Of a stretch of DNA of 64,000 bases, positions 7,936 through 46,866 are shown piece after piece. The position numbers were made by a program, and so were the translations under genes. Numbering within the stretch: the first letter of the stretch is position 1; each line of letters opens with the position of its first letter. The notes below the pieces were generated by a model, which had not been told where the DNA came from, searched no databases, and saw nothing but the letters and a program-made list of their open reading frames with translations. This stretch comes from a virus, in the IMG/VR virus record IMGVR_UViG_3300007177_000055, positions 1 through 64,000 of that record; one strand, 5' to 3'.

Positions 7936-8067
7936 AGTGAAGTCTTACTGGTTAGTTATAGTGTCAGGTGTCTTATTAGCTGCATGTGCCCTAGAGTACC
8001 AAACACCTATAGTTAATTAATACACTTGCGCTGAAATTCCAATTGGTACTTTAAGACTGAGGTACAC

Positions 8068-32282: not shown

Positions 32283-32354
32283 AATTTACACACAAAGTCA
32301 ATCAACACCCAGCAAAGACTGTTCCCCGCTTAAAATCAAATTCTGTTTGTATTG

Positions 32355-32684
32355 ATGATCAAACTACTTACTGCTTTTGTAATTGTCTTAACCGCAGCCA
32401 AACCTGCTACAGCTTCAACAGTTATAGCCAGTATTTACCACCCTTGGTATAACGGTCGACCTACAGCTTCAGGAGAACTGTTTCGTTATTATGGGCTTTC
32501 CGCAGCTCATCCCTGGTTACCTTTTGGTAAATACCGTGTTAGTTACCGAGGTAGATCGGTAAATCTAAGAATCAATGACCGACTAGAGCTAAACCGTCTC
32601 GACCTTTCGTGTGGGGCAGCACAGATACTATTTGGTTCTTGCAGAGACAACCTAGCCCCAGTTACGTACACCCGAATTGACTAA
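32355..32684 (+). CDS. rlpA: RlpA-like double-psi beta-barrel lytic transglycosylase
   Basis: Signal peptide, AS.Y...NGRPTASGE, AAHPWLPFG, INDR, LDLS. Confidence 0.88.
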   Translation: MIKLLTAFVIVLTAAKPATASTVIASIYHPWYNGRPTASGELFRYYGLSAAHPWLPFGKYRVSYRGRSVNLRINDRLELNRLDLSCGAAQILFGSCRDNLAPVTYTRID

Positions 32685-32911
32685 CTATCGAGAGTCTCTT
32701 CTGGTACCAAAGAGGACTTTTTCTTAGATAAGCTTAAAGCCACTGCGCCACCACCGGCGACAGCACCTAAAGATCCAGACACTACCATTTCTACTATACG
32801 GCCATACTGAACGGCAAATTTCTCACTGCTGTAAGCCACTACAGAAGCTCCTGTAATTGCAATAACCAAAGATACGGATAAACCTAATAGTAAAGGATTA
32901 GGTAACGACAT
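32681..32911 (-). CDS. small two-TM membrane protein (holin-like candidate)
   Basis: Two hydrophobic helices and a basic C-terminus. Confidence 0.5.
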   Translation of the reverse strand: MSLPNPLLLGLSVSLVIAITGASVVAYSSEKFAVQYGRIVEMVVSGSLGAVAGGGAVALSLSKKKSSLVPEETLDS

Positions 32912-32991
32912 AAACTTCCCGCAGCTGTCACTAGTGTAGACTCCCTAACTCAGAATGCCAAAGAGTTAAAACTCAACTAAACTCACTTAAT

Positions 32992-33003
32992 TAAAACAAA
33001 GTA
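32992..33003 (+). promoter_or_regulatory. recurrent TA(A)AACAAAGTA motif (representative copy)
   Basis: Copies at 14645, 21930, 30976, 32992, 41984, 46786 and variants at 54094 and 6947, all on + and mostly just upstream of + strand genes. Confidence 0.55.
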
Positions 33004-33080
33004 TAGCGTCTGGTAAAGTTAGGTGAACTGGCTTTAGCAAGGCCGGTATGCCATAATTTACTTACTCTTGGAGCAAACTC

Positions 33081-33515
33081 ATGTCCACCAATTCCATTAC
33101 ACCTGAAATGAACAACCCCCGTTTGGAAGCTCTTACTCGCTTGAGCTCCCAACTAACTACAACTGGTTTTGAGAAAGTAACCGTTAACTTTAGCGGCCAA
33201 AACGCCAATTCAGTACTAGAAGAACCTAAGTTCTTTCGTACTGGCTTAGACGAAGCAGTAACCGCTGCTGATGTTGCAACTGTATTTAACGGTACAACGG
33301 TAGACACCTCAGTCATTATAGAAGCAGTTAGCCGAGCACTTGAAAATAGCTATCCGTTCTGGTCCGACCTTGTTGGTGCGTACGGTACGGTCAGCTACTA
33401 CCCCGGCCAGTTTGGGATGTACATTAAGATCCAAAGAATGATCATTACTACCCATGAAAGTAACCTTACCCGTAACACCCTGGAGTCACTGTATCCTAAA
33501 GTAAAAGCTGCCTGA
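33081..33515 (+). CDS. hypothetical protein (DUF6878-like?)
   Basis: V.V.FSG..W....GAYGTV pattern. Confidence 0.55.
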   Translation: MSTNSITPEMNNPRLEALTRLSSQLTTTGFEKVTVNFSGQNANSVLEEPKFFRTGLDEAVTAADVATVFNGTTVDTSVIIEAVSRALENSYPFWSDLVGAYGTVSYYPGQFGMYIKIQRMIITTHESNLTRNTLESLYPKVKAA

Positions 33516-33535
33516 TTAGACCCAACCCACGTTAT

Positions 33536-33556
33536 AGGGGGTTGCACCCCCTTTTT
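33536..33556 (+). terminator. hairpin/terminator just before the Ubl gene
   Basis: AGGGGGT-TGC-ACCCCCT-TTTT. Confidence 0.6.
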
Positions 33557-33558
33557 CT

Positions 33559-33912
33559 ATGCCAAACCTCTTTGAGACCTCAGCTTCCTTTGAAGAGGAA
33601 GACTTTACAGATGAAGCCGTCGCAGTCAGCTCTTTTGATGGCACAAGGCAAATCTCCTTAAAATATGGAACCGAAACTGTATACGTAGACCTTACGCTGT
33701 CTACCTACGCTGGCAAGACTTTGGCCCAAATCGCTGCTCTGCGAGCAGACGACTTAGGTTTTAGTCGCGATGCTTCTCGACTAAACTACCGCCGTGGGGG
33801 AGAGTCTATCGAACCCTCATTTATCCCTAAACCTGGGATGTCTTTTGTTCTTAGCACTTCTGTTGATACTAAGGGCCAGCCAGATAGTAAAGGCGGTTTT
33901 CAGTCAGTCTGA
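33559..33912 (+). CDS. prokaryotic ubiquitin-like (beta-grasp) protein with C-terminal extension
   Basis: ISLKYG / VYVDL / GKTLAQIA..DLGF / LNYRRGG / PKPGMSFVL beta-grasp pattern ending VDTKG-QPDSKGG-FQSV; acidic N-terminal leader. Confidence 0.7.
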   Translation: MPNLFETSASFEEEDFTDEAVAVSSFDGTRQISLKYGTETVYVDLTLSTYAGKTLAQIAALRADDLGFSRDASRLNYRRGGESIEPSFIPKPGMSFVLSTSVDTKGQPDSKGGFQSV

Positions 33913-33980
33913 AATAAAACCAAGCATACTTAGCACTCTGGTAACACAGAGTGCTATTGTATGTTTACTTGTCTAAAAAT

Positions 33981-35759
33981 ATGGCTAGGCTTTCTAGGGA
34001 CAGTTTTGGAGCTTATCTAAAAGAAATCGGTAGGTTTGAGCTCCTCAGTAAAAAAGACGAACAAGAACTTGGAAGCCTAGTTCAGCTGGGTGAACAACTT
34101 TTAAGCATCAAAAAACAAAATTCGGGTATCCAGACTCTAGAAGAACACGCTAATGCTGCCGGACTAACAACAAAAGAGTTACAACGCACTCTAATAAAAG
34201 CTAAAAGAGCTAAAGATAAATTGATCAAGCACAACTTACGATTAGTAGTTTCTATAGCTAAAAGATACACCAATCGTGGCGTGTCTATGGTTGATTTAGT
34301 TCAAGAAGGCACTATAGGTCTTAACCGGGCAGTCGAAAAGTTTGACCCTAAAAAGGGGTTTAAGTTCTCTACCTACGCTTGTGTACCTTTAACTACTGAG
34401 ATACTTACTCAACGAGGCTGGTTAAAGTTCCACGAACTTGAACCTGGTGATCAAACCATTGGATACGATCAAGGCGTAAGTAAGTGGACACGCATTTTAG
34501 GAAGCAAAGTTTATGGCAAAGCTCCTCTAGTAACCTTTGGAGACTCCAAGTGGTCAGTAGAGTGTACTGGCCAACATAAATGGATTGTGAATGACGAAGG
34601 TACTACAAAGCTAATACCACTAAAAGAAATTGACTTTAAAAAAGACTCTACCAGGTTAGTAACTTCTGCTAGTTTTGTCGGTGGAGATAACCCAATGACT
34701 GCAAAGGAAGCTGCTTGGATAGCCGAAGTAATTTCAGTCAGCAAACCTAAAGAAGATCAACCGGACAATGCCAGCCTATCTGATCTAGTACTAAGTCTAA
34801 AACCAGCGGCACGTAAGGCCTGGTTTGAAGTGTGGTGTAACTCAAGCAGACCTCGTTCTGTTGAGGAAACGCAAGCTTTAGCACTTTGTGCTTTTTTAGA
34901 AGGGCACTCTAAAGTTAGAGTCAACGAACAAACAGTAGAGTGGACAGTAGAGTTTAACGGTCCGGGCTCTCTTTTTATAGAAGATGTTGAAAACGTTAAC
35001 CAGAAAACTTACTCTCAAATTTTCAGCCCTCCTACCATAAAAGCTTGTGGCAGCGCACCTGTTTGGTGTCCTAATACTGAACTAGGTACCTGGACTGCTA
35101 GGACTCCGGAAGGCAGAATATTCTTAACAGGTAACACTTGGTGGGTAAGACAAGGCATTACCCGAGCAGTAGCTTTACATTCCAGAACTATACGTTTACC
35201 AGTACATATCTTTGAAAGACTTAATAAAATAAAAAAGGCAACTCGAACACTGTCACAACAAAACGGTAGACAACCAAGCATCTTTGAAATTGCCTCTTTT
35301 ATAGAAGAACCTATAAATAAAGTGCTAAAGTTAATGCAGTACTCGAAAGTAATTAGGTCGACAGACTCCTTGTTGAGCGATTCTACAGGAACCAGTTGCT
35401 TAAGAGACTTTTTAATAGACGAGATTACCCCAACACCTGAAGAAGTAGTCGAGCGAGAATTAAACGCCGTTTATATCAAAAAACTCCTTAAAGGGTTAAC
35501 AGAACAAGAAGCTTACATAATCAAAAAGCGTTATGGTATAGACCTAGAGTATCCCGTACCTCTAAAAGAAATAGGAGTAGCCCTAGATATTACTACTGAA
35601 CGAGTAAGACAAATAGAACGCAGGGCATTAGAAAAGTTAAAAGAAACCCATTTGTTTCATGAAAAACATCACCCTAAACTTAAGCGCAATACCTTAATGG
35701 GAAAAAGCGGAGTTACATACAAACCAACTGAGGTTACAAAACTTGAAGTAGACTCATAA
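33981..35759 (+). CDS. rpoD: RpoD/sigma70-family sigma factor containing an intein
   Basis: YLKEIGR, HNLRLVVSIAKRY, DLVQEGTIGLNRAVEKFDP..GFKFSTYA|intein|TWWVRQGITRA, SRTIRLPVH, ERVRQIE. Confidence 0.93.
   Translation: MARLSRDSFGAYLKEIGRFELLSKKDEQELGSLVQLGEQLLSIKKQNSGIQTLEEHANAAGLTTKELQRTLIKAKRAKDKLIKHNLRLVVSIAKRYTNRGVSMVDLVQEGTIGLNRAVEKFDPKKGFKFSTYACVPLTTEILTQRGWLKFHELEPGDQTIGYDQGVSKWTRILGSKVYGKAPLVTFGDSKWSVECTGQHKWIVNDEGTTKLIPLKEIDFKKDSTRLVTSASFVGGDNPMTAKEAAWIAEVISVSKPKEDQPDNASLSDLVLSLKPAARKAWFEVWCNSSRPRSVEETQALALCAFLEGHSKVRVNEQTVEWTVEFNGPGSLFIEDVENVNQKTYSQIFSPPTIKACGSAPVWCPNTELGTWTARTPEGRIFLTGNTWWVRQGITRAVALHSRTIRLPVHIFERLNKIKKATRTLSQQNGRQPSIFEIASFIEEPINKVLKLMQYSKVIRSTDSLLSDSTGTSCLRDFLIDEITPTPEEVVERELNAVYIKKLLKGLTEQEAYIIKKRYGIDLEYPVPLKEIGVALDITTERVRQIERRALEKLKETHLFHEKHHPKLKRNTLMGKSGVTYKPTEVTKLEVDS
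34380..35135 (+). mobile_element. 252-aa intein in sigma region 2.3
   Basis: Starts CVPLTTEILTQRGW, has block B CTGQHKW, ends VWCPNTELGTW..IFLTGN, +1 residue Thr. Removal restores FSTYATWW. Confidence 0.92.
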
Positions 35760-35762
35760 GTA

Positions 35763-36095
35763 GTGGGCTGTTGTATGTATCATCATCCTTTAGCTACTTA
35801 TGGCTCTTCTCAAGAAGAAGTAGAAGAATGTAATGCTTGGGGTTTTGCTTCAGGGTTAACTCATTCATACTTTGAATCGGAAGACCCTTTTGCAGGATTT
35901 TCTCTGCTAGCTCTTTTAAAAGACTCATCAGCTCCAGGTTCTCACTATAGAGCGTTAATCAGAGACTACAAAAAGTTTAAGACTACAGCTGTCCTTAGGG
36001 AAATACAGTGCTTACTAGCAACGGCTATAGAAGAAAGTGAAAATGGCGCAGATTTAGAAATTTTTTCATTACCACAAGACGTAGATGAATTTTGA
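35763..36095 (+). CDS. hypothetical protein
   Basis: ORF directly after the sigma gene. Confidence 0.5.
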   Translation: MGCCMYHHPLATYGSSQEEVEECNAWGFASGLTHSYFESEDPFAGFSLLALLKDSSAPGSHYRALIRDYKKFKTTAVLREIQCLLATAIEESENGADLEIFSLPQDVDEF

Positions 36096-36159
36096 TTAAG
36101 TCTTAAGTCTTAAAGCTTAACTAACTACAGATACACTGATAATATACGCTTGCACAACC

Positions 36160-36432
36160 GTGGCAGACGAGCCTAAAGAAGTTGCAGTAACAGGCGAGTT
36201 AAAGTATCTTGCCTACGGCATAGGCATAATTGTTGTGTCTACAGCTCTAATAGGTTGCTTTTCGTTTGCATGGCAAGTCTCTCTGCAACTTAATTCAGCT
36301 ACTCAAGAAATAAAATCTTTAACAGCTACGGTAAACGAACTCAAAACAGAACTAAATACGCTCAAAAAAGAACACGAATCTAACAAAGAACAAACTCAGG
36401 AACGCTTGAATGAACTACGTTTACGCCCCTAA
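36160..36432 (+). CDS. TM + coiled-coil protein
   Basis: One TM helix followed by heptad repeats. Confidence 0.6.
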   Translation: MADEPKEVAVTGELKYLAYGIGIIVVSTALIGCFSFAWQVSLQLNSATQEIKSLTATVNELKTELNTLKKEHESNKEQTQERLNELRLRP

Positions 36433-36896
36433 ACAATAAAGTAAAGGGTTTTGGGATCGGTAGTTAAAGTGTTATAAACAGCTTGAGTGCAAAAAACCAT
36501 ATTTTCTATACGGTTAGTCCCTAAAACGGTATTACTGACTACTACATTTGCAGGAACTACGGCTTCCCATCCTTCTGTAGTACCGTTTGTGTTTACTAAA
36601 AACTGTTTAGTGTCTGGTTGGTACCAAAGCTCACCTGTATAGTCTAAAGTTCCGCCGTCCTGGAACTGGTCTGGCCTTAAACCTGAATTACCTATGTAAG
36701 TATTTCCAATACGAATGACTTTATCTGAAGGATTTGTAACCGCAGTTGAACCTACTCTTAAAAACAAACCTAAAGAAGTTCTTATTAGGTTTGCCCCTGA
36801 ACGATGGTTAACTACAGGTTCAGCTCTTGCAAACTCACTTAATCGCGGTACGCGATTAGATGTATGAGTTTCTTTTAGGATAAATTCGTTAGGCAT
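36429..36896 (-). CDS. short tail-fibre-like protein
   Basis: N-terminus shared with 37921..41499; C-terminal TQAVYNTLTTDPKTLYFIV. Confidence 0.7.
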   Translation of the reverse strand: MPNEFILKETHTSNRVPRLSEFARAEPVVNHRSGANLIRTSLGLFLRVGSTAVTNPSDKVIRIGNTYIGNSGLRPDQFQDGGTLDYTGELWYQPDTKQFLVNTNGTTEGWEAVVPANVVVSNTVLGTNRIENMVFCTQAVYNTLTTDPKTLYFIV

Positions 36897-36916
36897 GGTG
36901 TTAACTCGCAGTTAAT

Positions 36917-37603
36917 TTAAGGGTTTGGCGGCCAAGACCTAAAAGCTTCAGATTTAACTAGAGTGTTTAAAGCTACTTTACTAGTTACTTGTTGAACTTG
37001 ACTAATTTTAGCCTGAGCAGCTGACCTGACCGACGCTCTCCATAAAGTGACACTTTCTGGAATTAACTGGTTAGTCTCTAGTTGTCGAACAACATACCAA
37101 TCAGTAGGTTGCAGTATTTCATAAGCTTGTTTATTGAGCTCCAACAAAAAATTTTGCTTAGCTTCTGATAGTTTAAGGCTAGGTGAAAAACACGACCATA
37201 TAAAATGCTGGCCTGTCCAGTACAACTCAGAATATTCATCTGGTTTTGATGAAGGTACTTCTTCAGTGGTATCTGCAGGTTGAGGCCAACCTACACTAGT
37301 AACTACTACCGGTGCACCTAACTTTAATTCTGGCTTATCTACTGTAGAGTAGTAAGTTTTAGGGTTGTTTTTAGCCTCTAGTGCCAAGAGTGCCTGATTT
37401 AGTATAACTTCGTAGTCTTCAAGAGACTCCAAGTCCTCTAGAACTAACTCATCAGCAACTACTCTAGCTACTACCCCTAAACCCCTAGTTTGGTCAAACT
37501 CTACACTGTTTACATCTTTAGGAACGCTGCTAAAGTCAAGGTCTTTTACGCAATCATCTCCTATGAAAACTAATTTCTGCCTAGGCTTTAAACAAATAAG
37601 CAT
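36917..37603 (-). CDS. tail fibre assembly/chaperone-like protein
   Basis: ILQPTDWYVVRQ.E..IP..V..WRA.VR..WP motif. Confidence 0.75.
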   Translation of the reverse strand: MLICLKPRQKLVFIGDDCVKDLDFSSVPKDVNSVEFDQTRGLGVVARVVADELVLEDLESLEDYEVILNQALLALEAKNNPKTYYSTVDKPELKLGAPVVVTSVGWPQPADTTEEVPSSKPDEYSELYWTGQHFIWSCFSPSLKLSEAKQNFLLELNKQAYEILQPTDWYVVRQLETNQLIPESVTLWRASVRSAAQAKISQVQQVTSKVALNTLVKSEAFRSWPPNP

Positions 37604-37609
37604 AATGGC

Positions 37610-37921
37610 TTAGGGTAAGATTTTTACACTGGCTGGTTCAATACTAGGTGAACCTTGAAAAGCACACAACAGTGCTCTACTAGTCTTGCTAAGAGTTTGG
37701 TCTACTTCGTTCCTTAATGCGTCTACACTAGCAGCTGTCTGCCTTTGTTTGTTGGCGTTTTCAATCACCAAAGTAGGCAGCCATGCAACAGCACAAGCCC
37801 AATCGTCTACCTCTTCACCAGTGTTTGGATTAGTTCCTCTGACTTGGGTAAACCAAGCACATTGTAAGCCAACACAGTCTTTTTTTATAAGGGGACAAAA
37901 TTTACCAGCTTCTAGTTTCAT
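37610..37921 (-). CDS. conserved cyanophage Cys-rich protein
   Basis: CPLIKKDC.GLQCAWF..RGTNPNTGEEVD.W.CA.AWLP..IEN..RQT.A.V..RNE. Confidence 0.8.
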   Translation of the reverse strand: MKLEAGKFCPLIKKDCVGLQCAWFTQVRGTNPNTGEEVDDWACAVAWLPTLVIENANKQRQTAASVDALRNEVDQTLSKTSRALLCAFQGSPSIEPASVKILP

Positions 37922-40900
37922 TAGTTTCTGGAACAAAGTATTACGTCAATATATTTTACTGCAAAGTCCATTGTATTAGAAGTAGTCTGAGTGGCCGAGG
38001 CGTATTGAATAAGAATGCCCGTGCTATTGCTAGCAGTACTTCCTGAACTAGTAACAAGAGAAGCTGCACCAGTACCTGTACCCGGACCTGGATCACTAGA
38101 TTGTTCCTTATACGTATAAGAGTGAGAGTGTCCCGGGTCGTTAATACCGTGGTTGTGGTTTACTAGGGGTACAGTTCTGCTAGTAAAGGCACTAGTAAAG
38201 TCCATAGTACCAGATGAGCCACCGCCAGGTCCAGATACCACTCTTATAGCTTTGTTTTGGTGTGTAGTTACTTGTGTCCAATTTAAAGGCGCTGCAGCTT
38301 GATAAAAAAGTAACGTATCTCCAGTACTAAAATCTGAAAAATTTTGAATTCTGTCATCTATTAAAGAAACAGCTGTAAAAGGAGTAAGTACAGCTTTTTG
38401 GTCCGTTCCGGCTAAAGCTTGAAGCGCGGTAGCTAACTGAACAAAACCAGCGCGTTGCGTAGTAGCGTATAGCTTCCAATTGTTAGAAGCCAATATTGGC
38501 GTTTCAAAATCTGTAAGAGAGTTAAAAGCAAACTTGGCAGACCTAAGATCTAAAGTGGCATTAGGGAACAAAAGTAGTCTTTCAGTAACTGTCAAACGCT
38601 TAAAAATCTTACTGTCAGAACTTGTAGAGCTACCCAGGTCAGTTTGCTTACCCGTCTTTAAGTCTATGATTTGTTGACCGATGATAAAGTTACCATCTTG
38701 ATCCATACCTGTGTTATAAACCCGACCGCCAAAAGACTCTTTTTTTATTCGAGCTATTGACTGCTGAAAAGTAAAAACTTTATCCTGAAACAGGGGTAGA
38801 GCCGAAGAGTAATTTAAGTATCCTTGCCATTCCCAAGTGTGTCCAGTGCATCTTATAGTGGAAGGACGATGTAAGTTAGTAAATAGCCTGGCCGGCAAAC
38901 TCACTTCTCTAGTATTTGCTTGCAGCAAAGCTGTTCTAGTAGATAAAGGCAAACCTATTTCGGTAAGTATAGTGTCTAAAGCTCTATAAGTAGCCGAAGT
39001 AGCTGGATTGGATACAGGGTCGTCAACGTTTATTTCAGGATATAGCCCACTTAATGGTTCGTTTGTAGAACCTGCCAACATTAGGGCTATATAATAAGTA
39101 CCTAAAGGTAGAGCAGTTCCCTGAAAATCAGTAGTCTTTACGCTAGCTACAAAAACAGGCGTAGTTAGCTGTAAGCCCATTAGCTGCCGATCAAGCTGCA
39201 AAACAAAGTTTTCTAAAGGCCGGCGTTTGTTAGCAGCAGAAAGACCTTCTAATTTTAGCCACAAAATGCGGTCATCTTGTTCTCTTTGGTCAGGACTGCG
39301 CTTAATGATTACAGGAAAATCTTCAACTAAAGCACGGTTGTTATATATACCGTTGTTAGTAGCTAAAGTGTTAAAAAACCAGCCATTTGAATCTTGAGAA
39401 TATAGAGGAGCTGTACTGGTCAAAGTAGCGGAGTACTCGGTACCATCTTCTCCAGTCACATACAACCTTTCTCCAGGCAAGTAAGTAAAAGGAGCTATAC
39501 GGTCTTCACTAGGCTGAGAGTCTACGTAGAGCTTAGTCGGAGTATTAATATCTAGATTAGTGCTAGTTTTTAACTTAAAGCTTAGAATAGGTATGTTAAG
39601 TACCGTTGAATCTATAGCTTTAGGTAAAATTATAGTATCTACATAAGAACCTGAGTCTTGGGGTAAAGGTTGCGCCGCAAAGCCACTAGCTACTAGAGAT
39701 AAGTCACCGAAGTTAGAGCAGCTATTGGTAATAGAAAGCTCACCTCCATTCTCTACTTCGTAATGAACTGCCGAACAAACCACAAAGCAACTAACAATTT
39801 GTGCATAGCCGCCATTAGTGGCCCTAAAAGCTCGATGTCTCCACTCTGGTTTATACCTTTTGTTTCCAGGTAGAGTATTATCGGTAGTAAAAGCTCGGGT
39901 GTCAGCCTGCAAGCTTACGTTAGTAAACTGAGCTGTAACCATCGACTTTAAGCCTGTGACTTTAGCTCCATCTATTACTAACCCATTAAGTCCAAATCTG
40001 GAACGTACCGAACAATTAAAAACGTATGGACTCGCATATACAGCAGTATCTACACCTAGAAAACCGTTTGCGTCTAAAGTTTGATTACTAGCAGTAGAAG
40101 CAACTATTTGCGTTTCAGCTGCATTAGCCTGAAAGTCAGCTAAAACTACGTTAGGAGATTGTGTTAACCCTAACACTTGGTAAATCTTAGAATAATAACT
40201 AGAGTCTGAACCTGCTAGTTCTTCTGCAGTTGCAAATTCTGCACACCCACAAAGGTGATGGCTACTCTGAAGAAATGCATTGTCAGTAAAAGTAAAACCA
40301 TATAGGTATGACCCTCCGGTTAGTTTAAAAATACTAGTTCTACCAGTACCAAAACAACCAGGGTCGGTTAGCCAATCAGTAAAGTTACCGACATACCTGG
40401 GACGAAACTTAGTTTTCCTGAGGTCTAATGCCACTATAGACACGCCCCGAGGGGTAATCAAACCACCCTTGATAGGGTTAAATACAGAATAATTAGGGTA
40501 ACTAACTGAATCTCCTATAGACCATACGCCTTTCATGCGACGCACAGTAACTGTAAAGTTGTCAACAGCAACTACTATAGCTGAGCCACCAGAAGAACTG
40601 AAAATCTGCTGACGAGGATACAGGCCTTCGGCTACAGCATTAGCAAGGTTTAGTACACCAGTAACTAAATTAATGCCAGTGACCAATCCACTTAACAACT
40701 GAGGATTAATAGGGCCCGTATCAGTTGGGGATAACCGAGGCAGAGCTGAATAGCTCACTACTCCTGGTCGGTTGTCTAAGTGGTAGTCACCAGAGTGTAC
40801 CAAAATAGTATCTTGATCATACAAATCATTATCTGCACCTGCTCGGTAAGACCTTAAAGCTGAAGCTATTAAAGCTCGCTCAGGAGTTAAAAAAGGTCTG

Positions 40901-41499
40901 GCTGGATCTAAACCGTCATTTTCAATAGAATCGTCACCTATAGTTTGATCTACGTGTATTTCATTTGATTCTGTACGTAAAGTAACAAAACCAGAGGCTG
41001 TTGCCCAATCAGCTAACCCTGCTGGGTTTACAGCCGTAGTTTCAGAAACTCCAGCTTTTATTTCTTCTAAAGTCGCTAAACGAACTAAACCAGCTTCTGT
41101 TTGGGTAGCGTCTACCGGAGTAACCTTGTACCAAACGGTTCCGTCATTAACAAAAAAAGCACCATCTGTTTTCCTTAACCACAGCTGGCCTATTTGACTT
41201 AATTTTGCAGAGTTGTTAGTAAACTCAATTCCCGGAGCGGTAGTACTTACTGCATCAGTGGTAACGTAGGCCGGACCAACTCTTACTACTTTGTCAGATA
41301 CATTTTCTGAAGCACCTGTACCAACTCTTAAAAATAAACCTACAGAACTAGCTATCAAGCTAGGGTTTGAAGTCCCGTGATTAACCGTAACTTCGCCGCG
41401 ATATAAGTCTTCAGGAGTAGTAGTACTAGGCACACGGTTAGGTATCCCACTAGACCGGGATACGATACGTGTTACGTCAAAGTCTCTGGGAGTACCCAT
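37921..41499 (-). CDS. large tail fibre/structural protein (cyanophage type)
   Basis: PRGVSIVALDLRKTK.RP, ASPYVFNCSVRS, KSMVTAQFT, RPSTIRC.GHTWEW, and a collar-like C-terminus FYQAAAP..W..AIRVVSG..HNH.I.DPGHSH. Confidence 0.85.
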   Translation of the reverse strand: MGTPRDFDVTRIVSRSSGIPNRVPSTTTPEDLYRGEVTVNHGTSNPSLIASSVGLFLRVGTGASENVSDKVVRVGPAYVTTDAVSTTAPGIEFTNNSAKLSQIGQLWLRKTDGAFFVNDGTVWYKVTPVDATQTEAGLVRLATLEEIKAGVSETTAVNPAGLADWATASGFVTLRTESNEIHVDQTIGDDSIENDGLDPARPFLTPERALIASALRSYRAGADNDLYDQDTILVHSGDYHLDNRPGVVSYSALPRLSPTDTGPINPQLLSGLVTGINLVTGVLNLANAVAEGLYPRQQIFSSSGGSAIVVAVDNFTVTVRRMKGVWSIGDSVSYPNYSVFNPIKGGLITPRGVSIVALDLRKTKFRPRYVGNFTDWLTDPGCFGTGRTSIFKLTGGSYLYGFTFTDNAFLQSSHHLCGCAEFATAEELAGSDSSYYSKIYQVLGLTQSPNVVLADFQANAAETQIVASTASNQTLDANGFLGVDTAVYASPYVFNCSVRSRFGLNGLVIDGAKVTGLKSMVTAQFTNVSLQADTRAFTTDNTLPGNKRYKPEWRHRAFRATNGGYAQIVSCFVVCSAVHYEVENGGELSITNSCSNFGDLSLVASGFAAQPLPQDSGSYVDTIILPKAIDSTVLNIPILSFKLKTSTNLDINTPTKLYVDSQPSEDRIAPFTYLPGERLYVTGEDGTEYSATLTSTAPLYSQDSNGWFFNTLATNNGIYNNRALVEDFPVIIKRSPDQREQDDRILWLKLEGLSAANKRRPLENFVLQLDRQLMGLQLTTPVFVASVKTTDFQGTALPLGTYYIALMLAGSTNEPLSGLYPEINVDDPVSNPATSATYRALDTILTEIGLPLSTRTALLQANTREVSLPARLFTNLHRPSTIRCTGHTWEWQGYLNYSSALPLFQDKVFTFQQSIARIKKESFGGRVYNTGMDQDGNFIIGQQIIDLKTGKQTDLGSSTSSDSKIFKRLTVTERLLLFPNATLDLRSAKFAFNSLTDFETPILASNNWKLYATTQRAGFVQLATALQALAGTDQKAVLTPFTAVSLIDDRIQNFSDFSTGDTLLFYQAAAPLNWTQVTTHQNKAIRVVSGPGGGSSGTMDFTSAFTSRTVPLVNHNHGINDPGHSHSYTYKEQSSDPGPGTGTGAASLVTSSGSTASNSTGILIQYASATQTTSNTMDFAVKYIDVILCSRN

Positions 41500-41596
41500 C
41501 TAACTAATTAACTTGCCTCTATAGAGACTAACAGTACAACAGTCCTTTTACCAACTACTATATCGGTTAACCTAGGTGTATACGTTAGCAAAGCGT

Positions 41597-41986
41597 ATGA
41601 ATGATGGGCTCGGCTTAACTCTTTCTGACTACTTAGACAAGAAAAAAGTCAGGTATCAACATCGTCAAGCTATCTTTACTGCATTTGACCACAAATGTGC
41701 TTACTGCGGTCAACCAGCTCAAAGTCTAGATCACGTCAAGCCTAAGCACAGAGGTGGCCAAAATCTTAGCTCTAACTTAGTACCAGCATGTTTAGCCTGC
41801 AATCAATCAAAAGGTTCTACTAACTTGTGGGATTTCTTCCACGAAGAACAATCTTTCTACTCAAAAACAAGGGCAGATTTCTTAAAAAAATGGATTTCAG
41901 GAGAAATCCATTCACTTCACGTACTTACTACACAGGAACTAGGTCTAGATACTAGCTGCTATTCGTTTAATGTAAGCTTTACTTAA
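41597..41986 (+). CDS. HNH endonuclease
   Basis: CAYCG..LDHVKP..GG..NLVPACLACNQSK. Confidence 0.9.
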   Translation: MNDGLGLTLSDYLDKKKVRYQHRQAIFTAFDHKCAYCGQPAQSLDHVKPKHRGGQNLSSNLVPACLACNQSKGSTNLWDFFHEEQSFYSKTRADFLKKWISGEIHSLHVLTTQELGLDTSCYSFNVSFT

Positions 41987-42024
41987 AACAAAGTACAGCG
42001 ATTAGTATCACACTTTACAGCTAA

Positions 42025-43650
42025 ATGAGTACAACTGAGAGTAAGACTGCAGCAATAGAACCTTTTGTTAGGACTAAAAGTGGGTGTTTACAGCTAATAA
42101 CTTCGGAATATTGGGGGAGCTGGTATAGAGCTATCGACGATCCTAAAGGTAAAGATATAGATACGAAAGACCTCTTAAGTAGGTTCTGGATAAAACCCGA
42201 CTTTGACAAAGTTCCACTAGTAGACTTACGTCGAATCGTAACTTTTTACCGTAAGTACATCTCCAACCTAGCAGCTAACTCTACAATTGACACTAACGAA
42301 GTACAAGTCTTACTGCTGCGGTCTGAAACAAATGTTAAAGTCTGGAAAATCCTAGTACCTAAGCAAATTATTACACAAGCTGCTGTTGAAGCAGTAACTC
42401 ATCCATGCTGTGATCTAGAAACTGGCGAAGATCACGATATATTCCCACCAGCAGGTTGGGTGCACGCCGGCAGCAGCCATTCTCACAACACGATGTCTGC
42501 TTTTTTTAGTCCCAAAGACGATCGAGGCGAACTGACCGTACCAGGTTTGCACTTTGTTATTGGATCCATTACGTCTGACAGCTACGACATCAAAGCGTCT
42601 ATAGTAATAAATCGCGCACGTTTCTTAGTACCACCTACTCACGTACTAGAAACTGGCGATATCCCGGTGGCAATAAACCAAGCTTTGGTAGCCAGGTTTA
42701 AAGATTCTGAAACAGTACCCTATGCAACAGAAGTAGAAACCTATGTTAAAAGGGCTCAAGACGTGCGTAACTCAGTAAAGGCTGAAAGCTTTACCTACCA
42801 CACTGCTAGCCCTTATTCATACCCTAATTTGCGTCGTCGTACTCGCAAACACTCTTTTAGAAACGCCCCTTACAGTTGGACTCCTGGCATTAACCCCAAG
42901 CTAGACGATTTCTCTGATTTACTAGAAAACTTTAACGAAATAAGTCAATACCAACCTAGCAAAACAGTAACTGTTACTGGCAGGCCGCAACTGTTAAGCA
43001 GCGTAGCGTTTGACTTAGCAGAAATACTGAAGAGTCTTAAGCATACTTACCCAGAAATAGTATTTGATGCTTTAGTAAAACACGATTATCTTTCAGCTGA
43101 AGAAACCCCCCAAGCCTCAGGTGAGGCTACAGAAACTGAAAAACCACTACTCTCAGATTTTACAGAAGACGCTGACTGGTGCGCTGACTGGTCCGCAGAT
43201 CCTTTAGACACCAGTTTTATACTGCTAACTTCTTTACTAAGCGACCTTGAACAAGAAGCTGTGGCCAAAGACATAGTTTACGCTATGTTAGTTGCTCACG
43301 GGCTCCTTAATCTCCACTACTTCTCCATTGATCCATATGTTGTAGACCTTGGAGAATATCTAGTTGAAGGTAAAATTATTGACTCGGTATTTCCCGAAAA
43401 AGAGAACCTAATCAAACTAGCTAAAGCCTTAGATTCGCTTTTAGTTGACGAATACGCCCGAGTAGTTTGTGGGATTTTGATCAACTTAGATTACCTAAGC
43501 ATTGAGGATCTTTGTGACTACTTGCCTGAAAGCGAAATTCGGCGAGGCATCCTAGAAGCCAACGAATACACTTTAACTTTTACGGATTCTAATCCTGAAC
43601 TAAGCGCCGCACCTAAATTACCAGAACCTGACTGGTCTGACTTTGTTTAA
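42025..43650 (+). CDS. JAB/MPN+ metallopeptidase (deubiquitinase-like) with acidic C-terminal region
   Basis: NEVQVLL (Glu), VPKQ, GSSHSHNTMSAFFSPKDD (HxH..S..D), GLHFVIG; PRTRC protein A type. Confidence 0.85.
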   Translation: MSTTESKTAAIEPFVRTKSGCLQLITSEYWGSWYRAIDDPKGKDIDTKDLLSRFWIKPDFDKVPLVDLRRIVTFYRKYISNLAANSTIDTNEVQVLLLRSETNVKVWKILVPKQIITQAAVEAVTHPCCDLETGEDHDIFPPAGWVHAGSSHSHNTMSAFFSPKDDRGELTVPGLHFVIGSITSDSYDIKASIVINRARFLVPPTHVLETGDIPVAINQALVARFKDSETVPYATEVETYVKRAQDVRNSVKAESFTYHTASPYSYPNLRRRTRKHSFRNAPYSWTPGINPKLDDFSDLLENFNEISQYQPSKTVTVTGRPQLLSSVAFDLAEILKSLKHTYPEIVFDALVKHDYLSAEETPQASGEATETEKPLLSDFTEDADWCADWSADPLDTSFILLTSLLSDLEQEAVAKDIVYAMLVAHGLLNLHYFSIDPYVVDLGEYLVEGKIIDSVFPEKENLIKLAKALDSLLVDEYARVVCGILINLDYLSIEDLCDYLPESEIRRGILEANEYTLTFTDSNPELSAAPKLPEPDWSDFV

Positions 43651-43653
43651 CTA

Positions 43654-44712
43654 ATGGAAAACCTAGTACTTGCTACAGAGCAAAATACACCACCCACTAA
43701 AAGAACAGCATGTAGAGGTAAACACAAGTTTATTCCGTTTCCGTCAGGAACTACAAAAGCTATAGTCTCCTATGATTCTTACGAACCTGACGAAATCTAC
43801 ACAGGATATACCACTAAAATATTTACTGTTACTGAGCCTCGAACAGCTCGAATAACACTAGCTACAAGAGAAGACTCTGCTAAATGGCTAGAAGCATTTA
43901 GTGCTAAAATCTGTAAGTCTTGTAGTAAACTGGCAGTTCCTGCCAAGATACTGGAGCAAGCTTATACTGCAGATCCAAGTTTAATAACACTAAACTTGGA
44001 TCAAATGCAAAGTTTCCTAGCCGAAAAAATTGAGGGTGCATGTTTAAGCGTTACCAACCATGTAAAAGGAGTATGCCCAGCCGGGCATGACATAGCTTCT
44101 GGACTAGAAGAGCAAAAAGTAGCTGTGATGAAAGTCCCAGCGTTATGCTTGATGTCTACGTATACTAGCAGAACAAGCAGTAGTCACTTTGCTTTTGATC
44201 AAGGACGAAAGTACAGTCTTTTTGCTTACAAAGATGATAATCAAGTTCCTTATATAAGTCCTTATAGACCAGCTAATGTATACACTAACGGAAATATTTG
44301 TTGGGGTAAGCAACCGTTACCCCAAAATCCTAAACAAGCTTTGGCGGCTTATTGGGGTTCTGGTTTCAATCGTGATTTAGCCTCTCAAGCAGCTAATACT
44401 CTAAAAGGTACCTTAGAAAACTACGAGCAGCTGTCTAGCAACTTTGAGAAGCTAACACTGCATACACTTCAAAACGTCCAGGGCATTAACAAACCTTGTG
44501 TGGGAGTTTATTTAAGCTCTTTTAGTAACTTGTTGTCGGCAGTTCCGTCAGAACTCCACATAAAAGTACGCTCTGAGACTTTTGTATTAGCTTGGGTTCT
44601 GTCTGCAGAACCTGATAGATACTTACTGGAGTTTAAGGAGTTTTTAGTAGAAATGAACGATTTAAACGGTCGTGCAAAAGTAAAAGTTCTTAGTTCATCC
44701 CCAGAAAAATGA
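43654..44712 (+). CDS. prokaryotic E2 (family D / PRTRC-B-like) conjugating protein
   Basis: PANVYTNGNICWG..YWGSGFNRDL with the putative catalytic Cys; N-terminal CxxC. Confidence 0.75.
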   Translation: MENLVLATEQNTPPTKRTACRGKHKFIPFPSGTTKAIVSYDSYEPDEIYTGYTTKIFTVTEPRTARITLATREDSAKWLEAFSAKICKSCSKLAVPAKILEQAYTADPSLITLNLDQMQSFLAEKIEGACLSVTNHVKGVCPAGHDIASGLEEQKVAVMKVPALCLMSTYTSRTSSSHFAFDQGRKYSLFAYKDDNQVPYISPYRPANVYTNGNICWGKQPLPQNPKQALAAYWGSGFNRDLASQAANTLKGTLENYEQLSSNFEKLTLHTLQNVQGINKPCVGVYLSSFSNLLSAVPSELHIKVRSETFVLAWVLSAEPDRYLLEFKEFLVEMNDLNGRAKVKVLSSSPEK

Positions 44713-45512
44713 AATTTGACGCAGTTCACCTTGTAGGTCTAGGTGGTACAGGTTCTTACTTAGCAGCTCCTCTTGCCAAGCTATTGAAGTACCACCAAAA
44801 TGGGACGGAGAACCTCCACTTTTGGGATAAAGATAAACTTGAAGTTAAAAACCTCACCAGACAAGACTTTACTCCAGAGTCTATCGACAAGAATAAAGCT
44901 CAAGAAAAAGCTGCTGAACTAGAAAGCATCAACTCTAATATTAAGGTGCATCAGTCTTGGTTCGTTCCAGACACACTAAATGCATGTTTAAAAGAGGATC
45001 CCAGTGACAACCTGCTAATAATCCTAGCTGTTGACAACGATGCAACCCGGCATCATATCATTGTTGAGCTAGACGGCATGCTTGATCAAGACTTTGTACT
45101 AGTTCTACCTGGTAACGGATACGACACCGGCAACACTTTCTGGTACGGGCGACAAGGCACAGAAACAGCTCCCGTGCACCCTTTTGAAGTGGCTGACAAC
45201 TGGGCAAGACCTCAAGATGGTCTACCAGGAGATTGTGCTTTAGAAGCAGTATCCAGCCCTCAGCTATTAGCTAGCAATTTAGCCCAAGCTCTGGGATCTT
45301 TGTTGTTGGTACAAGGTTTGTTAGAAGATCAGCCTATGCCTTTTAAACTAGACTACTCTGGCCCTGAGTTTAGCATCGTTGCTGAAGGCAGGCCTACGTA
45401 TTTTCCTAGCTTGACACGCCAACCAGAACCTGTTGTTGAGTCAGAGGCAGAAACACAAGACCTACTGCCTGAATCTGTACCTAGCTCTACAACTGTAGAG
45501 CTGTTTTCTTAA
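44709..45512 (+). CDS. ThiF/E1-like activating enzyme
   Basis: VGLGGTGS, D.D.LE.KNLTRQ, NKA, AVDN..TR, GDCA....PQL..SN (putative catalytic Cys). Confidence 0.9.
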   Translation: MKFDAVHLVGLGGTGSYLAAPLAKLLKYHQNGTENLHFWDKDKLEVKNLTRQDFTPESIDKNKAQEKAAELESINSNIKVHQSWFVPDTLNACLKEDPSDNLLIILAVDNDATRHHIIVELDGMLDQDFVLVLPGNGYDTGNTFWYGRQGTETAPVHPFEVADNWARPQDGLPGDCALEAVSSPQLLASNLAQALGSLLLVQGLLEDQPMPFKLDYSGPEFSIVAEGRPTYFPSLTRQPEPVVESEAETQDLLPESVPSSTTVELFS

Positions 45513-45513
45513 A

Positions 45514-45996
45514 CTAATACTCTCCCCCGAAAATTTGACCTACTACTAAACCTCTAGCACCTAAAGCTATCATATTTGATTGCAAAGAAACTGTTACTTG
45601 CAAAGCAGGATCTATCAAACTCATATTGTAGTTAAACTTGTTGCCAAAAGTAACTAGATCATCTGCTGTAGGGTCTTCCTCAAAGTCACCTAGTTCAGCT
45701 CTTAGTAGACCAAACCCTAAAGGACTACTAGAAACTAGAGTACCACTACCAGCAAACATAGCTACTATAAAGCAGCTCAGTCCACTGGTAGGAGCTTCAC
45801 TAAAAGTAATAGTATCCTCTAAAACTGTAAAGTTAGTTACAGGTGCTTGAGGTACACCCCCCATAACAGCCATAAGCTGAGCTGCATTAGCAGGGGTAAA
45901 AGAAGCTCCTGATAACCTTAAGGGAAAGGTTACTCTGGATCCGTCAAAAAGACTAGAAACATCATCTAGTAGTACATTACTAGCTGGATTAGACAT
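45514..45996 (-). CDS. virion structural protein
   Basis: LDDVSS.FDG...FPL..GGVPQ.P..F...ITFSEAP, a cyanophage baseplate/tail repeat motif. Confidence 0.75.
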   Translation of the reverse strand: MSNPASNVLLDDVSSLFDGSRVTFPLRLSGASFTPANAAQLMAVMGGVPQAPVTNFTVLEDTITFSEAPTSGLSCFIVAMFAGSGTLVSSSPLGFGLLRAELGDFEEDPTADDLVTFGNKFNYNMSLIDPALQVTVSLQSNMIALGARGLVVGQIFGGEY

Positions 45997-46403
45997 CAGT
46001 AAGTACCTCCATCCCAGGTAGACCCAGTCAAGGGTAAAGAATCTTCTAGAGACCCGCCATAAATAGTACCTTGACTTAGAGTACCGTTTAGAACAGTAAT
46101 AGAGTTAACCGTCAATTTATTAAGAGTGAAAACACCACTAGCGGTTATATACGGAATTTTCAGGTTTTGACCAGTAGCAGTTAAGTTTCCAATAGCCAGC
46201 AACTTATCTAAGTTGTTGTTATAGGATTGAACATGCAACCGCAAAGAATCGGCAGTAGCGTCATTATCTGTGTTGCCAGTAGAAGTTCGACGCAAACCAT
46301 TGTATGTAGTTCGATACGGACCCGTTAAAGGCAACAAACTATCATTGCTAGAAGGGTGCCCTAACAAATCTCCTAGGTCTGTCCCTTGAGTAAAGTTAGG
46401 CAT
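45996..46403 (-). CDS. virion structural protein
   Basis: Ends WDGGTY; lies in the structural strand block. Confidence 0.6.
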   Translation of the reverse strand: MPNFTQGTDLGDLLGHPSSNDSLLPLTGPYRTTYNGLRRTSTGNTDNDATADSLRLHVQSYNNNLDKLLAIGNLTATGQNLKIPYITASGVFTLNKLTVNSITVLNGTLSQGTIYGGSLEDSLPLTGSTWDGGTY

Positions 46404-46452
46404 TCAGCAAAAGCAACCTACTAAAATAGTAACTGTTGCAGTACCAAAACTG

Positions 46453-46788
46453 ATGACTTTTTCAGACTTAAATGAATTAGCAGCTTTACACGAACTCCTA
46501 GTTCCGATAGAAGCTCAATTAGTAAACAACCAAAAACTAAAAGCAAGTTACGAGTTCCGTAAACTAGAAATTGAATCTCAGCTGCAATATGCCGTCGCTT
46601 TTGATTCAACTCTAAAAAATGATACTCAACGTTCAGCTATTTTGACAGTAAACAAACTAGCTTCAGAGGAGTGGGTTAGGCTAACAAAAGTAGACCTACC
46701 TGAAGTAGAAGCTAGCTTACTAACGGACTCGTTTAAAGAAAAAAGACTAAGAGAATTAATACAATCAGTTATATGTAAACAGCACTAA
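46453..46788 (+). CDS. coiled-coil hypothetical protein
   Basis: LKNDTQR motif, helical. Confidence 0.6.
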   Translation: MTFSDLNELAALHELLVPIEAQLVNNQKLKASYEFRKLEIESQLQYAVAFDSTLKNDTQRSAILTVNKLASEEWVRLTKVDLPEVEASLLTDSFKEKRLRELIQSVICKQH

Positions 46789-46866
46789 ACAAAGTAGAAC
46801 GTTCGGCCTAAAGTTCTTTGTGCTTATTTTGTGAGTTTATCAGGTGAAAATAAAATCAGTGAATAT

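Follow-up and report, generated by a model that had tools for sequence, protein, structure and literature searches.

Ubiquitin-like conjugation in prokaryotes has recently been well studied in anti-phage immunity, in the Bil, Bub and CBASS Cap2/Cap3 systems, where the bacterium is the user. Another operon type, class 6d, combines a ubiquitin-like protein (Ubl) with a terminal Gly, a JAB peptidase with an extra N-terminal domain, an activating enzyme (E1), a conjugating enzyme (E2) without the classical His, and an alpha-helical protein (PMC1779556). In Iyer et al. 2006 (PMC1779556), the 6d E2 is described as having an absolutely conserved His C-terminal to the Cys, and the JAB-N domain as having a conserved Arg and Trp. 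We equate class 6d with the Pfam family Prok-E2_D and with the NCBIfam PRTRC families (TIGR03734-03742) by the taxon list and by overlapping matches, an equivalence that no paper states. Here we report that four genes in a 64,000-nucleotide stretch of virus DNA (the window, which comprises bases 1-64000 of the 125,409-bp IMG/VR record IMGVR_UViG_3300007177_000055, hereafter G000) probably encode a virus-borne Ubl conjugation system of the 6d kind with a detached modifier gene. We assign to this reading a probability of about 0.72, which applies to the mechanism and not to the role of the system.

The enzymes are encoded by a tight + strand operon of JAB, E2 and E1 genes, which the first-pass annotation of this DNA had delineated together with a small upstream gene; all four open reading frames (ORFs), including the small one, are present where it had placed them. 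By ORF coordinates, the JAB and E2 genes are separated by 3 nt and the E2 and E1 genes overlap by 4 nt. In Pfam, the E1 matches ThiF (3e-13), the E2 matches Prok-E2_D with 25.9 bits (cut-off 25), and the JAB protein matches Prok-JAB with 18 bits, below the cut-off of 25. In NCBIfam, the best or near-best families are PRTRC_A for JAB, PRTRC_B for E2 and PRTRC_ThiF for E1, all of them far below the cut-offs (18.7 vs 101.8, 17.9 vs 131.45 and 39.8 vs 144.75 bits, respectively). Since the Pfam and NCBIfam matches agree, though they are weak, we regard the three enzymes as representatives of one class. The JAB, E2 and Ubl proteins had no match in PHROGs or PADLOC, and PADLOC recognized the phage E1 by 'E1-E2' models only (best 1.7e-8). 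Among 50,697 phage records, near-identity and protein searches for the operon and for the E2 gave no match, and no cultured phage with a window-type E2 was found in this collection. No PDB sequence was matched significantly by the E2, JAB or Ubl profile. Judging from the alignments described below, the conservation of the enzymes is much stronger than the library scores imply.

The E1 (44709-45512, + strand) is a single-domain ThiF/MoeB-type protein of 267 aa, which also matches PRTRC_ThiF at 3e-10. The GLGGTG and GDCA motifs by which it had been recognized are both present, and in an alignment of 14 E1s (eight from phages, five of the plasmid 6d/PRTRC type and one from phage Arash) the residues G10, G12, G13, G15, R51, K63, D109, R114 and C176 are invariant (14/14). 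By likeness to ThiF and MoeB, we take these residues to represent the nucleotide loop, the Arg finger, the Mg-binding Asp and the candidate catalytic Cys. The best PDB sequence matches of the E1 are the ThiF-type structures 9egc and 9egb (8e-6), followed by UBA5 and ThiF; 9egc, 9egb and 9egd are deposited only as 'THIF-type' proteins.

The JAMM motif is defined as E...HxHx7Sx2D. The product of the first gene of the operon, a JAB/JAMM (MPN+) metallopeptidase of 541 aa (42025-43650, + strand; Prok-JAB E 0.0028, PRTRC_A E 0.001), contains the segment HSHNTMSAFFSPKDD, which agrees with HxHx7Sx2D and thus with the initial identification of this protein. It is composed of a JAB-N region (~residues 1-90), a JAMM core (E92, H152, H154, S162, D165) and a ~320-aa lineage-specific C-terminal extension. 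A word-based search yielded 34 homologues, 22 of which were aligned with the window protein (23 sequences in total); the other 12, close to sequences already included (P0045, P0046, P0048, P0049, P0051, P0052, P0063, P0065, P0071-P0074) were omitted. F161, S162, D165 and D166 are invariant in this alignment, and E92, H152, H154, W30, R99 and W107 are at least 90% conserved. Of these, W30, R99 and W107 stand in the N-terminal region and may correspond to the Arg and Trp positions of Iyer et al. The predicted functions of the peptidase are maturation of the Ubl precursor and deconjugation. In G001 (IMGVR_UViG_3300035681_000001), a 190-kb relative of the window record that is 96% complete, the JAB gene is interrupted inside the JAMM motif (..HSHNTM / AFFS..) by a group I intron; the insert of ~1.1 kb (L002:7737-8845) carries a 301-aa LAGLIDADG-type ORF (7773-8678) and an intron core matched by Rfam RF00028 (8519-8792; 83.1 bits, E 3e-21). 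Self-splicing elements typically home to conserved functional sites, and the position of the intron inside the JAMM motif was counted in favor of a conjugation system. The second JAB exon of G001 is called by gene callers as a separate 384-aa protein (P0059).

The E2-like protein (352 aa; 43654-44712, + strand) matches Prok-E2_D over residues 184-245 and PRTRC_B over residues 186-239. The motif NVYTNGNICWG, singled out in the initial inspection, is present, and its N208 and C216, as well as W217, G218, P223, N239 and D241, are invariant in all 12 sequences of an alignment that covers three phage lineages. The Asn-x7-Cys spacing is that of canonical E2s (HPN...C). PF14460 (Prok-E2_D), the sole Pfam family matched, is detected at a marginal level (E <= 0.01) in five of the 12 phage E2s, which come from three lineages. 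The protein also has a C-terminal domain (~residues 272-346) and an N-terminal region (residues 87-141; window 43912-44076) with four cysteines, C87, C90, C130 and C141, that are invariant or nearly so in the three phage lineages; this region may be a zinc-binding module standing in for a ubiquitin-ligase-type component (E3). The spacing of these cysteines is CxxC...C...C here and CxxC...CPC in the high-GC lineage. In the ESM Atlas, the nearest E2 clusters are mostly viral and 14-39% of their members carry Prok-E2_D, all feature scores being <0.9 and serving as leads only. Single-protein scans of IMG/VR with the E2 and with the Ubl yielded no confirmed match.

The candidate modifier is ORF 33559 (33559-33912, + strand), a 117-aa Ubl precursor assigned by a beta-grasp model and by family alignments. 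It starts with a leader composed of MPNLF and an acidic stretch (residues 1-30), continues with the beta-grasp domain (31-99) and a flexible tail ending in D103-T104-K105-G106, and closes with an 11-residue pro-peptide, QPDSKGGFQSV, after G106 (codons 33877-33909). This ORF has no match in Pfam, NCBIfam, PHROG or PADLOC. The beta-grasp fold that had been suspected from the letters was recovered by modelling, with ubiquitin-like neighbors in both Foldseek and VIA-align. An AlphaFold2 (AF2) model based on nine sequences has the order b-b-a-b-b-b over residues 31-99 and a disordered tail, with a mean predicted local distance difference test (pLDDT) score of 70 and 74-88 in the core 31-99. The PDB matches in Foldseek are nearly all ubiquitin, SUMO and other Ubl domains (E ~1e-3, target TM-score 0.6-0.68), and VIA-align lists Raf-RBD, ubiquitin variants, SUMO, ISG15 and MoaD at Z 7-8.7. 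Because Z values <8 are common among unrelated pairs, the weight of the fold match rests on the uniformity of the match list.

The C-terminus of the modifier, first noted as VDTKG plus an extension, proved to be conserved in the family alignments as D-T-K-G with a variable tail. Among the eight close homologues D-T-K-G is invariant, and the two most distant sequences stop at the Gly, the others having tails of 2-11 residues. A profile search of 1.84 billion representatives produced 24 matches; two of these, P0020 and P0038, are long repeat proteins and were judged spurious. A further match from metagenomic data, P0028, consists of two Ubls in tandem, each of which ends in HEQKG. In an alignment of 26 Ubls, which omits P0020, P0038, P0025 and P0028 (near-duplicates: P0010, P0011), K105 is invariant (26/26) and is followed by Gly in 24 sequences and by Ala in the other two; six sequences end exactly at the K-G position, and 20 carry tails of 1-11 residues. 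An invariant Lys-Gly end followed by tails of varying length is what Ubl precursors show. A start of the M-x-x-[LI]-F type followed by an acidic stretch is found in 21 of the 26. A duplicated KG terminus was rejected as a conserved feature, as the second KG occurs only in the tail of the window protein; the tail of the closest relative reads RPDTKSAQSV, and those of the others have 2-5 residues. The family members checked for origin come from metagenomes only. Comparison of the 26 Ubls with PRTRC_C and with Ubl families gave no convincing match, and an IMG/VR scan with a sub-alignment of the distant Ubls gave none. The modifier family is previously unrecognized.

The operon itself contains no modifier gene, as the first-pass annotation had observed, because ORF 33559 is the only gene matched by the Ubl profile in the whole 125-kb record; the distance between the two loci is 8.1 kb. 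In G001 the Ubl gene accompanies the trio in the same split layout, located beside the sigma-factor gene with the enzymes ~16.6 kb downstream. As G000 and G001 are syntenic, their shared layout alone says little. An IMG/VR scan with the JAB alignment revealed six further loci (L013-L018) on contigs of 40-371 kb, which were searched as six-frame ORFs with our own Ubl, JAB, E2 and E1 profiles. The co-occurrence of the four genes, on which the initial proposal depended, is observed in all six of these viral loci: the Ubl family (E 1e-8 to 8e-14) is in the same cluster as the enzymes, and an E1 lies downstream (E 8e-27 to 2e-40). Five loci (L014-L018) have the order Ubl-JAB-E2-E1 with the Ubl gene directly upstream of JAB, and L013 has the order Ubl, 352-aa ORF, Ubl, E2, JAB, E1. 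An ORF with Cys-Trp-Gly is located between JAB and E1 in L014-L018 and before JAB in L013, where the E2 profile matches at E 1e-10. The Ubls end in HEQKG* (both L013 copies), SESKGRH*, SESKG*, SEAKG*, SESKG* and SETKGLG*, that is, with 0-2 extra residues. By blastp (1e-6), the window record has only JAB and E1 in common with L013-L018. Since the Ubl family clusters with JAB, E2 and E1 in six further viral contigs, the four genes are, as judged by gene neighborhood, one module, and it is apparently the G000/G001 lineage that moved the modifier next to the sigma factor. At least three unrelated virus lineages, whose genomes measure 40-371 kb, carry the cassette. Identical longest-contig values among the JAB, E2 and Ubl matches, such as JAB P0052/Ubl P0012 (34,846) and JAB P0057/Ubl P0015 (149,570), and further values of 205,078, 39,155 and 57,842, suggest additional co-occurrence of Ubl and enzymes.

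The split layout could also be taken to mean that ORF 33559 serves its neighbors, the sigma factor and the upstream ORF 33081, and that the trio acts on a host protein or is left without a modifier of its own. The 8.1 kb (~16.6 kb in G001) between the loci and the position of ORF 33559 beside the sigma-factor gene, bracketed by conserved hairpins, fit this explanation. We consider it highly improbable given that ORF 33559 is the sole member of the modifier family in the record, that the same family adjoins the enzymes in other lineages, and that the split lineage has retained the D-T-K-G end and its variable tails.

Several side observations concern the wider distribution of the cassette. The two Ubl genes of L013 (L013:6127-8092; IMGVR_UViG_3300030385_002649, 370,804 bp) are near-identical, and the 352-aa ORF between them is charged and probably coiled-coil. 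The slot directly upstream of JAB is occupied by an HNH endonuclease gene in G000 and G001 and by the Ubl gene in L014-L018. Seven contigs of metagenome-assembled genomes (L020-L026), found among 185,579 species genomes and assigned to Planctomycetota, Deltaproteobacteria, Thermodesulfobacteriota, Vicinamibacteria and others, encode a weak relative of the phage JAB with a ThiF-type E1 immediately after it (E 3e-9 to 9e-33). These loci had no match to the phage-type Ubl or E2 profiles and may represent yet another variant.

Comparison with plasmid loci, collected with the E1 as bait, places the phage set close to class 6d. The statement in the first-pass annotation that PRTRC modifiers end in ..TKG agrees with two PRTRC plasmids, those of Azospira and Sulfuricystis, in which PRTRC protein C ends in GTKG*. 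Related ends are found in 65-72-aa proteins of the Geoalkalibacter and Alteromonas loci (HEKG*, KSKG*) and in a 158-aa protein of a B. thuringiensis plasmid (AKNG*). The accompaniment of the trio by a Lys-Gly-type end on plasmids supports this statement. An unannotated 6d-like set on plasmid1 of the cyanobacterium Chondrocystis sp. NIES-4102 (L007:3136-6774) comprises, in this order, a 147-aa protein, a 228-aa protein, an E2 (GQVCWGK), a JAB (HSHGHANAFFSNTD) and an E1. The 147-aa protein has an internal ..RVGTKG followed by an 80-residue extension, and the E2 lacks a His after the Cys, as does the phage E2. Like the 6d/PRTRC systems, the phage set consists of a small terminal-Gly beta-grasp protein, a JAB carrying an extra region at its N-terminus, an E1 of one domain and an E2-like protein with a conserved Cys but no classical His, and the Cys and ATP-site residues of the phage E1 align with those of five plasmid E1s. 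The 6d gene set (terminal-Gly Ubl, JAB, E1-like, E2-like) is contiguous in L013-L018, with the Ubl detached in the window and G001.

The differences from 6d/PRTRC systems are: i) an E2 without His after the Cys and with a four-Cys N-terminal region and a C-terminal domain, ii) a JAB with the ~320-aa C-terminal extension, iii) a modifier with an N-terminal leader and, in the window lineage, a detached gene, the carriers being lytic-looking phages, and iv) the lack of a separate alpha-helical partner gene in the corresponding position, the PRTRC_F model having no match. It is possible that the C-terminal extension of JAB is the counterpart of the 6d alpha-helical protein. The absence of ParB and other PRTRC partners noted earlier extends to the whole 125-kb record, estimated to be 72% complete, in which PRTRC_C, ParB, D, E and F had 0 matches each. 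With these proteins missing and the enzyme scores far below the cut-offs, PRTRC membership was rejected; by such profile scores, the phage set is PRTRC-like only at its core.

Among the defense systems, 6C corresponds to type II Bil and 6E to Bub (PMC11601596, PMC10557695). Bil resembles the phage set in that Ubl, E2, JAB and E1 are each encoded by a gene of their own and an E3 is missing (PMC10557695, PMC11601596); its E2 has been proposed to choose targets directly, and its Ubl is conjugated to lysines (PMC10557695, PMC11601596). It differs in the multidomain E1, BilD (PMC11601596), in contrast to the one ThiF domain of the 267-aa phage E1, and in being a bacterial anti-phage defense, whereas here a phage is the carrier. 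Bil membership was rejected on the single-domain build of the E1. Bub is likewise a cascade resembling ubiquitination, with a JAB that matures the Ubl precursor (PMC11601596), yet it features Ubl-E2 and JAB-E1 fusions, or an E2-E1 fusion, and a DUF6527 protein (PMC11601596). DUF6527 had no match among ten proteins in our Pfam scan, and Bub membership was rejected in view of the four separate genes and the lack of fusions. The type II CBASS proteins Cap2 and Cap3 share E1 adenylation, thioester relay and a JAB for reversal with the phage set; however, Cap2 is an E2-E1 fusion that conjugates a CD-NTase rather than a beta-grasp Ubl, and a CD-NTase is not present here.

The likeness to Bil raises the explanation that the genes are a phage-carried exclusion or defense module that tags structural proteins of competing phages or, under some conditions, of the carrier's own progeny, instead of host proteins. 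In favor of it, the operon is embedded among - strand genes, including a 1192-aa ORF, and related operon classes travel on mobile elements (PMC1779556). The lack of PADLOC matches for JAB, E2 and Ubl and an E1 without the BilD build speak against this explanation, and the cassette is maintained in three unrelated lytic-looking phage backgrounds, the largest of 371 kb, for which a core infection function is at least as good an explanation; we regard an exclusion module as distinctly unlikely.

Phages provide two further points of comparison. A search with the N-terminal part of JAB retrieved one uncultured contig and Salmonella phage Arash (OQ632216), a cultured 181-kb phage with a cassette at L019:1340-4539 (gp249c-gp246c). 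Adjacent genes of Arash encode a JAB (HSHNTMGAFFSGTD; E 2e-16), a 346-aa ThiF-type E1 (E 3e-14) and, in the E2 position, a 251-aa Cys-x-Gly protein (..GNMCVG..). This cassette, whose E1, JAB and E2-like proteins are gp246c-gp248c, is much more distant and has no member of the K-G beta-grasp family, the adjacent 60-aa ORF being not beta-grasp-like by eye; the words ThiF and ubiquitin have 0 occurrences in the Arash paper. The lambda-type systems combine a Ubl (tail assembly protein I) with a JAB (K) in tail-assembly clusters of caudate phages (PMC1779556), but they are without E1 and E2 and have no conjugation cascade. Our literature search found no phage-encoded system of the present kind, although the supplementary operon tables on Bil and Bub, which were outside the search, may list some; the available texts of PMC11601596, PMC10557695, 10.1101/2023.09.04.556158 and PMC1779556 mention none beyond the lambda-type Ubl and JAB.

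The lambda theme could be extended to a modification of the phage's own virion proteins during assembly, such as tail or fiber maturation or covalent decoration. Besides the occurrence of Ubl and JAB in tail-assembly clusters (Iyer et al. 2006, PMC1779556), this explanation is favored by the location of the G000 and G001 operons between - strand genes that include very large ORFs (1192 aa in G000, >2245 aa in G001). Two of the Arash cassette proteins are annotated as 'structural protein' from the particle proteome. As the Arash particle list has 116 proteins, ribonucleotide reductases and a sigma factor among them, these labels carry little weight. Moreover, the operon is on the opposite strand from the large ORFs and carries the upstream motif of non-structural units, and no conserved structural neighbor accompanies the cassette in L013-L018. 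A function in virion assembly therefore appears rather unlikely.

Our preferred reading remains that the four genes form a Ubl conjugation system, and the first-pass suggestion that the phage has its own protein-tagging machinery is supported by the beta-grasp fold and by co-occurrence with the trio. The proposed cycle is drawn from family knowledge, while the anatomy, the catalytic residues, the beta-grasp model, the precursor C-terminus and the neighborhood link were computed here. The 117-aa protein would be made as a precursor and cut by the JAMM peptidase behind Gly106, with loss of the 11-residue tail. The E1, a ThiF-type enzyme and presumably a homodimer, would adenylate Gly106 and load the Ubl on its Cys176. 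The Ubl would then be handed to Cys216 of the E2, with Asn208 seven residues before the Cys as in canonical E2s, and the E2 would attach it to lysines of target proteins through an isopeptide bond. There is no apparent E3, and the four-Cys region and the C-terminal domain of the E2 probably choose the targets, as proposed for the Bil E2s. The JAB peptidase would also reverse the tagging.

Part of this evidence would suit a different chemistry, in which the E1 and the small protein act, in the manner of ThiS, MoaD or TtuB, in sulfur transfer or in another non-protein acyl-adenylate chemistry, such as conjugation to a nucleotide, a lipid or a small molecule, and the E2-like protein is a carrier or scaffold and not a ubiquitin-type conjugase. 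The best named matches of the E1 are ThiS and MoaD adenylyltransferases, the MoaD and ThiS folds are among the structural neighbors of the small protein, and the fold of the E2 is unconfirmed (mean pLDDT 55). On the other hand, the invariant Cys with an Asn seven residues before it, in the Prok-E2_D region, points to a thioester relay; the JAMM active site is intact and the modifier has precursor tails; and no sulfurtransferase or cofactor gene turned up among the scanned neighbors of the operon (Pfam, NCBIfam). We consider this alternative very improbable.

A number of observations weigh against the conjugation system of the 6d kind. For the E2, the AF2 model has a mean pLDDT of 55, is below 50 over residues 204-271 and is poorest round C216, which leaves the ubiquitin-conjugating (UBC) fold unconfirmed; the order of secondary-structure elements (four strands, Cys loop, helices) is compatible with a UBC fold in a model that is too poor to carry more. 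The E2 profile had no match in the PDB, and the 12-sequence alignment has no invariant His after C216, though 6d E2s are reported to have one; where the plasmid E2s have FSH, FTH or NTH, the phage E2 has FNRD. The E2s of L014-L018 score E 0.02-1.6 only with the window-lineage profile and were placed by position and by Cys-Trp-Gly. Since L014-L018 share many genes with each other, the six additional loci represent two independent lineages only. As for the modifier, sequence similarity to the plasmid Ubls is not detectable: hhalign of the phage Ubl family gave probabilities of 0.4% with PRTRC_C alone and 0.7% with six plasmid Ubls, in an alignment whose Chondrocystis range ends one residue before its Gly, and the profile match P0025 has no K-G end. 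The promoter-like motif shared by the Ubl and operon loci is generic rather than specific to them, and a terminator scan found 15 candidates vs 11.0 +/- 3.2 in shuffled sequences, not an enrichment. No RNA runs are among the listed sequencing runs containing the stretch, and a literature search found nothing functional on class 6d or PRTRC and no biochemistry of the class.

The surroundings of the two loci are similar in G000 and G001. The upstream neighbor of the Ubl gene is ORF 33081 (33081-33515, + strand), which encodes 144 aa, has no match in Pfam, PHROG, NCBIfam or PADLOC, and has a 161-aa homologue in the same position in G001. Between this ORF and the Ubl gene lies a GC-rich, terminator-like hairpin with a T-tract (33536-33552, + strand; -11.6 kcal/mol), with an equivalent hairpin at the same place in G001 (L004 ~1478-1493). 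A strong hairpin (33931-33956, + strand; -25.7 kcal/mol) is located between the Ubl stop and the sigma-factor gene; its G001 counterpart (L004 ~1838-1895) has -28.7 kcal/mol and keeps the stem despite changes on both sides. The two hairpins that bracket the Ubl gene would give this stoichiometric component its own transcript level, with the reservation that the terminator scan was not above chance. A further terminator-like hairpin with a T-tract (45482-45503, + strand) marks the 3' end of the E1 gene and the end of the operon, and the gene after E1 runs convergent to it. The HNH endonuclease gene directly upstream of JAB in both genomes is located at window 41576-41986 (Pfam 9e-11). Rfam had no match over window 32000-47000.

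A promoter-like motif with the core TAAAACAAAGTA is located at 32987-33015 (+ strand), 66 nt upstream of ORF 33081 and in front of the stretch with the Ubl and sigma-factor genes, and a second copy at 41979-42007 (+ strand), between the HNH stop and the JAB start and 38 nt from the latter; the two copies are 83% identical. The 9-nt core AACAAAGTA, usually preceded by TAA or AAA, has ten copies on the + strand and two on the - strand of the 125-kb record, at positions including window 32995, 41987, 30978, 46788, 60597, 14648 and 21933 and genome 76029 and 110161, and for eight of the ten + strand copies an ORF of at least 50 aa follows at a distance of 32-86 nt. The motif probably acts as a promoter or 5'-leader element for one temporal class of phage units. 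With about ten copies in the record it marks a class of about ten units, and a shared upstream element as a private link between the Ubl and operon loci was therefore rejected.

Both the Ubl locus and the operon are on the strand of the non-structural genes and share the motif with about eight other units, including that of the sigma factor. We therefore think that the tagging occurs inside the infected cell during host take-over. As to the targets, we tentatively favor host or defense proteins, with modest confidence, and rank the phage's own virion proteins below them as a more doubtful choice. The sigma-70 family factor (602 aa; window 33951-35759, by Pfam) has an insertion of ~270 aa between region 2, which ends at residue 144, and region 3, which begins at 422; a Pfam scan found no intein or Hint family in the insertion at E <= 0.1, and the same gene in G001 has a longer insertion. 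The host is likely a cyanobacterium, since the phage encodes this sigma-70 family factor and a family-A DNA polymerase fragment nearest to cyanophages. The closest relatives of the polymerase are freshwater cyanophages, namely Microcystis phages of the MaMV/Ma-LMM01 group, Pseudanabaena phage PA-SR01 and a Microcoleus phage, at 25-28% identity only. The record has a G+C content of 43%, and the stretch is contained in five DNA sequencing runs from two studies, of aquaculture and freshwater metagenomes.

Terminal [D/E/N]-L-F motifs recur at the N-terminus of the Ubl (window 33559-33576) and at the C-terminus of the E1 (45495-45509), which reads ..VELFS here and ..VDLFC in G001. On plasmids, PRTRC protein E ends in ..AELF in two cases (one at L006:4306-4998), a 136-aa Geoalkalibacter protein ends in ..LDLF (L009:6927-7337), and dnaN is located immediately upstream of the cassette in both PRTRC plasmids examined. 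These terminal motifs resemble beta-clamp-binding peptides of the QL[SD]LF type. The replication sliding clamp as a target, in analogy to PCNA ubiquitination and SUMOylation, is a long shot. In such a case the phage would dock its tagging enzymes, or the tag, on the host clamp or on clamp-bound proteins and would thereby redirect or shut down host replication; no DnaN was found in the five phage records tested, so the clamp would be that of the host.

In the system described here, the full set of tag, activating enzyme, carrier enzyme and protease is carried by viruses, in families that current libraries barely recognize (E2, JAB) or do not recognize at all (modifier). The split layout means that the modifier can escape searches that look at gene neighborhood alone. 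The Lys-Gly end also matters in practice: after trypsin digestion, modified lysines would retain just one Gly (+57.02 Da), which has the same mass as iodoacetamide alkylation, so that the conjugates would go undetected in standard di-Gly proteomics. If active, the system would provide a first functional handle on the plasmid 6d/PRTRC class, which has been uncharacterized since 2006, and phages would rewrite the proteins of infected cells by Ubl tagging, in a loose parallel to the phage T7 kinase, which is reported to disarm defenses by phosphorylation (PMC13645617).

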